Origin: Escherichia coli
Lineage (GTDB): Bacteria; Pseudomonadota; Gammaproteobacteria; Enterobacterales; Enterobacteriaceae
Length of the DNA: 64,000 nt
Direction: 5' to 3' (one strand)
Assembly (NCBI RefSeq): GCF_001677475.2
Contig: NZ_CP015229.1
Position numbers: made by a program. Positions 1 to 3,000 of the stretch are shown here, piece by piece (the stretch's first letter is position 1; the number at the start of each line of letters is the position of its first letter).

Positions 1-3000
1 AAAAAATTCGCTCGGTGTACCGCGAAAGCGACATCATACCGGGAGAGCAGACAGCCACCAGCATACTGAAGCAGCGCACAAAAAATATTGTGCTATCGCC
101 TCACGTCCACCAGCAACAGAACTCACCGCAGGAAAAGGCGGTTGTCAGCATTGCTGTTGATCCGGAGTCTCCGGAATCTTTCATGAAGCGACCTAAACGT
201 CGCCGTTGGGTAAATGAGAAATACACTCGCTGGGTAAAGACACAGCCGTGTGCGTGTTGTGGTCAACCAGCCGACGATCCCCATCACCTGATTGGTCATG
301 GTCAGGGCGGAATGGGAACAAAATCCCACGATATTTTCACGCTACCGCTGTATCGGGAGCATCACAACGAGCTTCATGCGGATCCGCTGGCGTTCGAAGA
401 AAAGCATGGTTCCCAGATTGATTTAATTTTTCGTTTTCTTGATCGCGCCTTTGCAACCGGCGTGCTCGGGTAAAAGAGGTTACTGATGCGTATAGAATTT
501 GTTTTGCCTTACCCGCCGACGGTGAACACCTACTGGCGACGCCGTGGCAGCACGTATTTTATATCGGAAGCCGGTAAGCGTTATCGCCGTGATGTGGCAC
601 TTATTGTTCGCCAGCAGCGGCTGAAATTAAATCTGTCCGGAAGGCTGGCGATAAAGGTTATCACAGAGCCGCCGGATAAGCGCCGTCGTGATCTGGACAA
701 TATCCTGAAAGCACCGCTGGATGCGCTGACGCATGCGGGGCTTCTCATAGACGACGAGCAGTTTGATGAAATCAATATTGTGCGCGGTCTGCCTGTTCCT
801 GGTGGGCGGCTGGGGATAAAAATCACAGAGCTGGAGTGCGCATGAATAACCAGTATTTACAGTTTGTTCGTGAGCAGCTCATTATCGCCACCGCCGATTT
901 GAGTGGGGCAACAAAAGGCCAGCTTGAAGCCTGGCTGGAGAATGCCATGTTCGATACAGGACGTTACAGGCGAAAAAAAATCCGGTACCGCGATGAAGTG
1001 ACTGGAAAAATGATCACGCGGGATAATCCACCAATCCCGGGGAAACAATCGCTGGCAAAGGGGACGTCAATTCCTCTGGTAAGTCAGGTTGAGTTTTCGA
1101 CATCATCATGGCGACGGGCAGTTCTGTCTCTTGAAGAACATCACAAAACCTGGTTGTTGTGGTGTTATAGCGGGAGTATTTGCTGGGAGTATCAGGTCAC
1201 CATAACCCGCAGGGCATGGGAAGAGTTTAAGGCTCGTTCTGGCAACAGGAAAATTGCAGAGAAAACACGGGAACGCCTGAAAAAATTAATCTGGCTGGCG
1301 GCGCAGGCAGTAAAAGCAGAACTTTTTGGTGGAGAAGGTTATGAATACCAGGATCTGGCATTACTGGCGGGAATAACAACCAAAAACTGGTCCAAAACAT
1401 TTACTGGTCACTGGGTTGCAATGAAACACATTTTTCATCAGCTGGATAGCGAAGCTTTATTGTTTGCGGCGAGAACACGTTCGAAACAAAAGACGGTATT
1501 GTCTAGGCAAGGTATTGCAAAAGTAGATTAAAAGGCATATATTTCGTGAAAATCTGATATTTTGCCGATTTTGTACGCGATGGCAAAGTAAGCAAAAAAA
1601 ACCTGTCGCCTGGCAGGTTTTTTTATGCCAGAAAAACGGTACAGAACATTAAACGCGCTGGTGGTTGCGAATACCGGTCTTTCAGCTTGCTGGCTTTTTC
1701 GACAAGAGGTATTGGTGTGTCACGTTAACCAGAAAAGGGAAAAAGACATGCTAAAACAGCAGGATATGACCGAAACCGCCAGAGTGGTATTTAATGAATT
1801 AAGCGTCACCGAACCGGCGACAGTCGGGGAGATTGCTCAGAATACTTACCTTTCACGCGAACGCTGTCAGTTAATACTGACCCAGCTTGTTATGGCGGGT
1901 CTGGCAGATTATCAGTTCGGTTGTTACAGACGCCTTCCGCAGTGAAGGCTTTTTTATTTGTGGTAATGGGCGGCTGGTGGGTGTTAGCGGCACCTGTCAG
2001 TCATGCTCTTATGTGTTGATGAGAATTTACCTTTTGGGGCTATAATTGAGCCAACCAATTGCTAATTAAAGTAAAATTATAATGGCTGTTGTCTGTTCAG
2101 TTATCATGGTTTGCTCCCCAATTAATATTTTTCTTGAAAAGGATAAGTTGTCACTTAAGCCCGGCTCAGTCGTTCTGGCCACCAAATGCATCAGGGAGCT
2201 GTTCCTTATGCATTATGGCAAAGTTAAAATTGTCGATATAAACCATTCCATAGTAAGTCAATATCTGGAAAGTCAGCATAAGCTGACGAGGACTCGTCTG
2301 ACTGACATTCCGCTTTACCTGTTCCTGGAACCCAACAATCCTGCGTTGGCTGCGGCTTTAATTACCAGCCAGAGATTTTCCGGAGATACCACGGATATGT
2401 TTCTTATGATGGCCTGCCTGTCGCTGTTTGAATCAGATGAACGGATGTCATTATTTTTAAGTGGATGTTTATCCAGTATAAGTGCCAAAGTCAGAGCGAT
2501 AATTCAAACAGATATATCTGCAAACTGGATGCTCGGTGCGATTGCGTTACGCCTGCATATGAGTGAGAGTTTGTTAAAGATAAAACTGAAAAATGAAGGG
2601 CATATGTTCAGTCGCTTGTTGCTGGAAGAGCGGATGCGGGTTGCTGTAAATATGTTATGTTCCCGGGATGGGTATGGACAGACAGTGGCAGAAAAATGCG
2701 GTTATTCAAGTAGGTCCTATTTTATCTCTGTATTTCACCGCTATTATGGCTTCCCGCCAGACAGATATGTATCTATGCAAGGGCTTGATTTTTGATTTCA
2801 TCTGATTATTATTTTCGGCCCGGCCCTTTAGCTCAGTGGTGAGAGCGAGCGGCTCATAACCGCCAGGTCGCTGGTTCAAATCCAGCATGGGCCACCATAA
2901 CATACCGCCATTAGCTCATCAGGAAGAGCAGACGACACGATAACAGGGTTGTTGGTGCGGGGTTCGAGTCCTCGATGGCGGTCCATTATCTGCATCATGC

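Follow-up and report, generated by a model that had tools for sequence, protein, structure and literature searches.

What an AraC-type transcriptional regulator is doing directly behind a phage late antiterminator, and whether it serves the phage or the host, is the question raised by the first 3 kb of a 64,000-nucleotide stretch of Escherichia coli DNA (contig NZ_CP015229.1, assembly GCF_001677475.2), referred to here as the window. The window starts in the late-regulatory region inside a lambdoid prophage. An initial annotation had described two genes at this place, a small open reading frame (ORF) and an AppY-like regulator of the AraC family, as cargo, and had suggested that the regulator and an IraM paralog nearby could rewire stationary-phase regulation of the host. 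The analysis reported here points elsewhere. It is quite likely that positions 1617-3116 form a mobile lambdoid late-region cassette that carries a small winged helix-turn-helix (wHTH) gene, a third allele of the PsrA/PsrB family of regulators and the tRNA genes ileZ, argN and argO, and that, by homology, acts on host acid resistance.

The regulator gene, referred to here as psr, lies at 2082-2795 on the plus strand and encodes an AraC/XylS-type protein of 237 amino acids that is already public in identical form as WP_185762095.1. Its assignment to the AraC family was confirmed by a C-terminal double helix-turn-helix (HTH) that matches Pfam HTH_18 (8.9e-10) and HTH_AraC (1.4e-5). The protein also matches phrog_1450 (E 5.8e-95), and the closest solved structure is the DNA-binding domain of GadX (1.5e-16). 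The best NCBIfam models were those for YdeO (104 bits vs a cutoff of 348) and GadX (85 vs 500), both far below their cutoffs. When the protein was compared by BLASTP with named relatives from annotated genomes, it was 99.6% identical to the allele of CFSAN004176 and 92.4% identical to each of two O157:H7 proteins, WP_000301797.1 and WP_000261909.1, the latter being the second O157:H7 copy, taken from LSU61. Identity was 38% to PatE (Sakai ECs_0287), 37% to the AraC protein found in the same slot in strain 08-00022, 35% to GadW, 30% to YdeO, 29.5% to AppY and 24% to YbcM, and 41% to GadX over the 123 residues of the DNA-binding domain. In a neighbour-joining tree the window protein falls inside a tight Psr clade with PatE as the sister clade, and GadW, AppY, YdeO and GadX are placed further out.

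O157:H7 genomes carry two psr copies that are 90.7% identical to each other. Reviews name PsrB as the closest homologue of PsrA, with 90% identity (PMC10877973, PMC8565820), and one counts six further Psr homologues in the E. coli pangenome (PMC10877973). The gene for WP_000301797.1 is at 1,905,274 in re-sequenced EDL933, which is inside the published range of OI-57 (1,849,324-1,929,825, z2048-z2151), the island that holds psrB (Z2104) (PMC8565820). Because the window protein is 92.4% identical to both O157:H7 copies, because their mutual identity is close to the published value and because of the placement in the tree, its sequence identifies it as a third allele of the PsrA/PsrB family of prophage-encoded secretion regulators. 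The term AppY-like therefore fits only in the sense of a wider group of acid-resistance AraC proteins, since the nearest relatives are PsrA and PsrB; likewise, the profile search proposed for an AraC/AppY-PatE affiliation returned an AraC protein, which the tree placed next to PatE but did not group with AppY.

The relatives also indicate what the regulator might do. PsrA, PsrB and PatE bind the hdeA and gadE promoters directly, raise acid survival and repress type III secretion (PMC10877973, PMC8565820, PMC3355084), and the targets activated by PsrA and PsrB are gadE, yhiF and hdeA (PMC10877973). By analogy, the regulon expected for the window gene is gadE, yhiF and hdeAB, with indirect repression of LEE-encoded type III secretion (LEE, locus of enterocyte effacement), and not hya and app (PMC10877973, PMC8565820). 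In a lysogen, homology suggests that psr would be transcribed from its own conserved sigma-70-like promoter. Since hairpin and folding scans found no terminator between the psr stop (2795) and the tRNA-Ile gene (2822), the transcript probably runs on through the tRNA genes to the terminator at 3089. The product would then use its two C-terminal HTH motifs to bind AT-rich sites at the promoters of gadE and hdeA and so activate glutamate decarboxylase (GAD)/HdeAB acid resistance, and in LEE-positive hosts it would lower type III secretion indirectly via GadE and YhiF. Once the prophage is induced, none of the three terminators of the region would stop RNA polymerase modified by Q, and the cassette would be co-expressed with the lysis genes. 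Such read-through by Q-modified polymerase is established biology in lambda and in Shiga toxin (Stx) phages.

It was also considered that the regulator is a functional analogue of AppY, which would activate hya and appCBA, stabilise RpoS and, together with an IraM homologue, rewire stationary-phase control. The two proteins share membership in the GadW/YdeO/AppY/PatE group and an N-terminal M..VCSV motif, AppY directly activates gadE and other acid-stress and acid-resistance genes so that the regulons may overlap (PMC10057817), and the IraM paralog that had been noted 1.3 kb away is indeed present. However, an identity of about 29% and the separate placement in the tree argue against this, as does the fact that appY is found beside ompT at the far end of DLP12 and not after Q. 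Moreover, it is the relatives with 92% identity that have a documented phenotype, and that phenotype concerns GAD and the LEE. An AppY-type function is therefore unlikely.

The evidence that the Psr-type regulator travels as part of a cassette comes from an alignment of four copies, among which three kinds of upstream module occur. These are a Phage_antiter_Q-type antiterminator in the window, a DUF1133-type one shared by CFSAN004176 and EDL933, and, in LSU61, a short Q with a CPBP protease. The left end of the homology falls precisely on the T-run of the terminator that follows the antiterminator gene, and the hairpin sequence differs from one upstream module to the next. At the right end, the copies remain homologous across the tRNA genes as far as an intrinsic terminator at 3089-3116 (3089-3106 for the end of the homology; plus strand, z -3.3), which forms the right boundary. 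Additionally, strain 08-00022 has a prophage with 98-99% identity to the window on either flank that differs precisely in the part corresponding to 815-3088 (3854-5400 in L004), where it has a DUF1133-type Q and a different AraC protein of 247 amino acids and has neither the small ORF nor the tRNAs. The region of Q, cargo and tRNAs is thus a mosaic block that can be exchanged. As far as sequence can speak to whether the block is a moron, late-operon cargo transcribed on its own, it has conserved promoter-like and terminator-like sites in addition to this exchange within an otherwise nearly identical prophage. The 247-residue protein of 08-00022 is 37-38% identical to Psr and PatE, occurs on about 999 contigs and is uncharacterised. 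The slot after Q repeatedly holds regulators of the GadW/PatE group.

Of 5426 complete E. coli genomes, 724 carry psr, which is present at 1321 places with a median of 2 per genome, and the same layout is present in prophages of O157:H7, O26, O103, O111 and O145 and in phage phiSTEC1575-Stx2k. Its carriage by a lambdoid prophage is evident from rusA and Q on one side, genes for lysis, terminase and tail on the other, and a prophage end at potB. This position inside a late operon, with no terminator ahead of the tRNAs, would also suit a regulator whose main targets are in the prophage (the tRNA cluster, TerB, the IraM homologue or the late genes) and not in the host, and phage genes are believed to be the targets of most transcription factors encoded by prophages (PMC10057817). 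However, the genes downstream vary between stx2, TerB and nanS-p, so there is no constant adjacent phage target, and close homologues bind host promoters directly (PMC10877973). A role mainly within the prophage is thus considered very unlikely.

The promoter proposed for psr is a plus-strand site at 2019-2046 (ATGAGA-16-TATAAT, 10/12), and its TATAAT, already noted in the initial annotation, is at 2041-2046. It was the top match in a consensus scan, though the scan overall gave 5 sites vs 2.9 expected, which is not far above chance, and it can be called promoter-like by sequence. Neither the -10 hexamer nor the 60 nt around it vary among the four copies, whose coding regions are 5-8% divergent. 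The psr frame is intact, the ratio of nonsynonymous to synonymous polymorphism (pN/pS) is about 0.25 across alleles, and the gene is under purifying selection. Its GC content is 42.6%, compared with 52.9% across the prophage portion of the window, so that the gene is AT-rich as had been claimed, but only moderately so. Although this composition, the weak -35 element and ribosome-binding site and the decay of neighbouring genes (a degenerate argN, a truncated nanS-p and a small ORF frameshifted at the O157:H7 PsrA-like locus) could describe a passenger that is silent, repressed by H-NS or decaying and that currently serves no function in this host, the selection on an intact frame, the invariant promoter region and the retention of psr in so many genomes, often in two copies, make this highly improbable.

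Several points weigh against extending the published Psr function to the window allele. The psr gene has a weak Shine-Dalgarno sequence, and its promoter has a poor -35 element. The two O157:H7 references were equated with PsrA and PsrB on the basis of genome position and mutual identity. The window protein has 18 substitutions relative to each characterised paralogue, several of them within the DNA-binding domain. Finally, Psr genes have been described together with effector loci and Pch regulators, although such company does not strictly define the family, but the window prophage has neither; tblastn searches with PerC, EspK, EspX7, EspN and NleG7 gave no match in the window. A PerC-family gene is present downstream in CFSAN004176, which carries the 99.6% identical allele.

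With regard to the substitutions, eight residues (22, 81, 148, 150, 196, 201, 232 and 237) differ from both O157:H7 paralogues, and none of the eight is in the recognition helices as mapped by hand (about 160-172 and 209-223). Within those helices, position 167 has the residue of the PsrA-like copy and position 211 that of the PsrB-like copy. Because the unique residues spare the recognition helices and both of these positions match a paralogue, target specificity has probably been retained.

With regard to the names, reviews place psrA (Z1789) in OI-50 / CP-933N, which has the same attachment site as the window prophage. However, no AraC gene was found between Q and TerB at the potC/potB site in either re-sequenced EDL933 (1,640,948-1,642,369) or Sakai Sp6 (1,553,348-1,554,769), which is why the second O157:H7 copy, that of LSU61, served as the PsrA-like reference. 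The mismatch may reflect strain differences or an erroneous joining of similar prophages in the original EDL933 assembly.

The other protein-coding gene of the cassette is the small ORF at 1748-1945 (plus strand). Both it and psr lie directly 3' of a lambdoid Q/terminator module, in agreement with the initial annotation. It encodes a stand-alone winged-helix protein of 65 amino acids that matches phrog_331 (E 1.4e-37) and is labelled a TrmB family transcriptional regulator by PGAP. The Pfam TrmB match is weak (E 0.011), and sequence profiles in general give weak winged-helix matches. An AlphaFold (AF2) model built from 18 homologues has a mean predicted local distance difference test score (pLDDT) of 90 and an H1-β-H2-H3-β-hairpin topology, and its Foldseek neighbours are the wHTH domains of IclR, MarR/OhrR, ArsR and O-methyltransferase N-terminal types (TMq 0.6-0.83). 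The winged-helix fold, which had been put forward as a possibility, is thus confidently modelled. Some gene callers give a longer version of 106 amino acids that starts at 1625, but in LSU61 an in-frame TAG interrupts it, and in CFSAN004176 a 1-nt indel does. The 65-residue call is therefore retained, and 1625-1747 is regarded as a non-coding leader of about 125 nt between the terminator T-run and the start codon. The nucleotide sequence of the leader is conserved throughout the contexts compared, namely the four cassette contexts and the Stx2a phages.

The small ORF is much more widespread than psr. Homologues with at least 81% identity are found in Escherichia, Salmonella, Klebsiella, Citrobacter and Buttiauxella, and 2378 complete E. 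coli genomes (44%) contain it, at 4732 places. It thus has several possible neighbours, of which psr is just one. No gene stands between it and the terminator hairpin in any context examined, the Stx2a and Stx2k phages included. It is under purifying selection, with pN/pS values of 0-0.6 across copy pairs and below 0.3 for most pairs. Since it is frameshifted at the O157:H7 PsrA-like locus, Psr must be independent of it. A terminator-like hairpin with a T-run overlaps its stop codon (1932-1959, plus strand; 1932-1949 for hairpin and T-run). The structure noted initially as the small ORF's own terminator is thus present, and its stem is kept in all alleles with a variable loop, but it is thermodynamically weak (z -1.4). 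No published description of the function of this protein was found. It is conceivable, though doubtful, that it binds DNA or RNA as a factor dedicated to the late operon and modulates Q-dependent read-through or the expression of downstream cargo (psr, tRNAs, stx), or that it is a partner or antagonist of Psr. If true, it would be a hidden regulator of late expression in Shiga toxin phages.

Upstream of the small ORF, the window contains a DUF968-like gene (15-473), rusA (486-845) and a gene for a Q-type late antiterminator of 229 amino acids (842-1531, plus strand), which is called from the ATG at 842 although a GTG at 836 is also possible. The Q protein matches phrog_304, "anti-termination protein Q-like" (E 6.8e-103), and Pfam PF06323 (Phage_antiter_Q) is recorded for Q at three loci with an identical arrangement (L012-L014). 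The end of the Q gene is overlapped by a sigma-70 promoter match at 1515-1543 (plus strand, TTGCAA-17-TATATT, 9/12 in the consensus scan), and its position suggests the role of a PR'-like promoter. It is followed by the tR'-like intrinsic terminator at 1595-1624 (plus strand), a hairpin with a U-run that forms the left boundary of the cassette. It is the strongest structure of the region, with a folding energy of -29.5 kcal/mol for 1550-1632 and a z of -4.8, and none of 200 shuffles folded as well. On the minus strand, 1591-1650 resembles the Rfam family STnc370 below threshold (40.7 bits vs a gathering score of 54), a match that most likely is just the symmetric terminator hairpin.

The 3' part of the cassette is the tRNA cluster. 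The tRNA gene ileZ at 2822-2897 (plus strand) is of the Ile2 type with a CAU anticodon; it was found by ARAGORN and by the Rfam tRNA model (68 bits), and tRNA-Ile is annotated in homologous loci. Its anticodon stem has a compensatory change from A-U to G-C relative to four other copies. A degenerate remnant of argN with a replaced anticodon arm is present at 2904-2985 (plus strand). Neither ARAGORN nor Rfam gave a match in this interval, but apart from the central arm it aligns with the intact argN of CFSAN004176, LSU61 and Stx2a_WGPS2, and the psrB locus of EDL933 has the same degenerate form. The third gene, argO (tRNA-Arg, UCU anticodon), is at 2999-3075 on the plus strand (ARAGORN; Rfam 72 bits).

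Beyond the cassette, the plus strand encodes a TerB family protein of 141 amino acids (3249-3674) and a DUF3927 protein of 54 amino acids (3671-3835). These are followed by an STnc100 small RNA at 3877-4052 (plus strand), where the full-length match to RF02076 scores 93.7 bits vs a gathering score of 47; a 2026 preprint ties STnc100 to PasD small RNAs of Stx-type prophages. Next, on the minus strand at 4097-4432, is the IraM homologue. It scores 160 bits against NCBIfam NF007393, above the cutoff of 121, is 63.6% identical to K-12 IraM over its full length and has a GC content of 36%. Further 3' is a truncated nanS-p, then genes for lysis, terminase, head and tail. The nanS-p gene, for a 9-O-acetyl-sialate esterase of the SASA family (4679-5029, plus strand), retains only the first ~105 codons, 82% identical to EDL933, and is truncated likewise in strain 08-00022. 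The prophage ends at ~33,677, and the DNA beyond it has 99% identity to potB, potA and pepT of Sakai, so the attachment site is that of Sakai Sp6 and EDL933 CP-933N. NCBIfam assigned no family to the small ORF, to Q or to TerB. PADLOC gave no defence-system match for psr, TerB or the IraM homologue, and its marginal match for the small ORF is meaningless.

The Psr family is already known, with both location and function published, and the novelty of the window allele is accordingly low. The wider significance is that regulators of this type give a prophage entry into the GAD acid-resistance network of the host, and in enterohaemorrhagic E. coli Psr also tunes type III secretion, affecting stomach passage and colonisation. 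To this the present analysis makes modest additions: a third allele, a cassette found behind at least three types of Q, its existence without effector or Pch genes, and a psr gene upstream of stx2 in one phage, phiSTEC1575-Stx2k.

Comparison with Stx2 phages bears on the suggestion that the psr slot is the one in which toxin genes are carried. The cargo of these phages resembles that of the window in having the small ORF, the leader and the tRNA cluster directly past the terminator. However, in Stx2a phages the order is small ORF, a DNA methylase, ileZ-argN-argO and then stx2AB, so that a methylase takes the position of psr. In phiSTEC1575-Stx2k the small ORF is followed by psr (91% identical), three tRNAs, stx2AB and an IraM homologue on the minus strand. 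This phage therefore has psr as well as toxin genes, and psr and the IraM homologue are in the same place and orientation as in the window; its copy of the latter, just past stx2B (L015, 7954-8277), is 75% identical to that of the window. Because stx lies after the tRNAs in Stx2 phages, the suggestion was not upheld, and the position of stx corresponds to TerB/DUF3927 (3249-3835), between argO and the IraM homologue or nanS-p.

Among known regulators, GadW and YdeO are homologous to the window protein over the full length and GadX over the DNA-binding domain, but these three are chromosomal whereas the window gene is prophage-borne and outside the GAD island. AppY of DLP12 in K-12 is likewise a prophage AraC/XylS regulator of the same broad group, but it falls outside the Psr clade and adjoins ompT, and its effects on hya, app and RpoS stability are not known for Psr proteins. 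PatE (Z0321 / ECs_0287) is nearer, being a prophage-encoded AraC-like activator of gadE and hdeAB with a shared N-terminal motif; it differs in its length of 247 residues, its low identity and its location at the distal end of the Sp1 remnant rather than in a post-Q cassette. PsrA and PsrB differ from the window in having a DUF1133-type or short Q upstream instead of Phage_antiter_Q, and the degenerate argN and truncated nanS-p are features of the window. Despite these differences, they are the closest counterparts by far, with the same length of 237 residues, the same double HTH and 92.4% identity, and with the same order of small wHTH ORF, psr and ileZ/argN/argO after Q in a lambdoid prophage.

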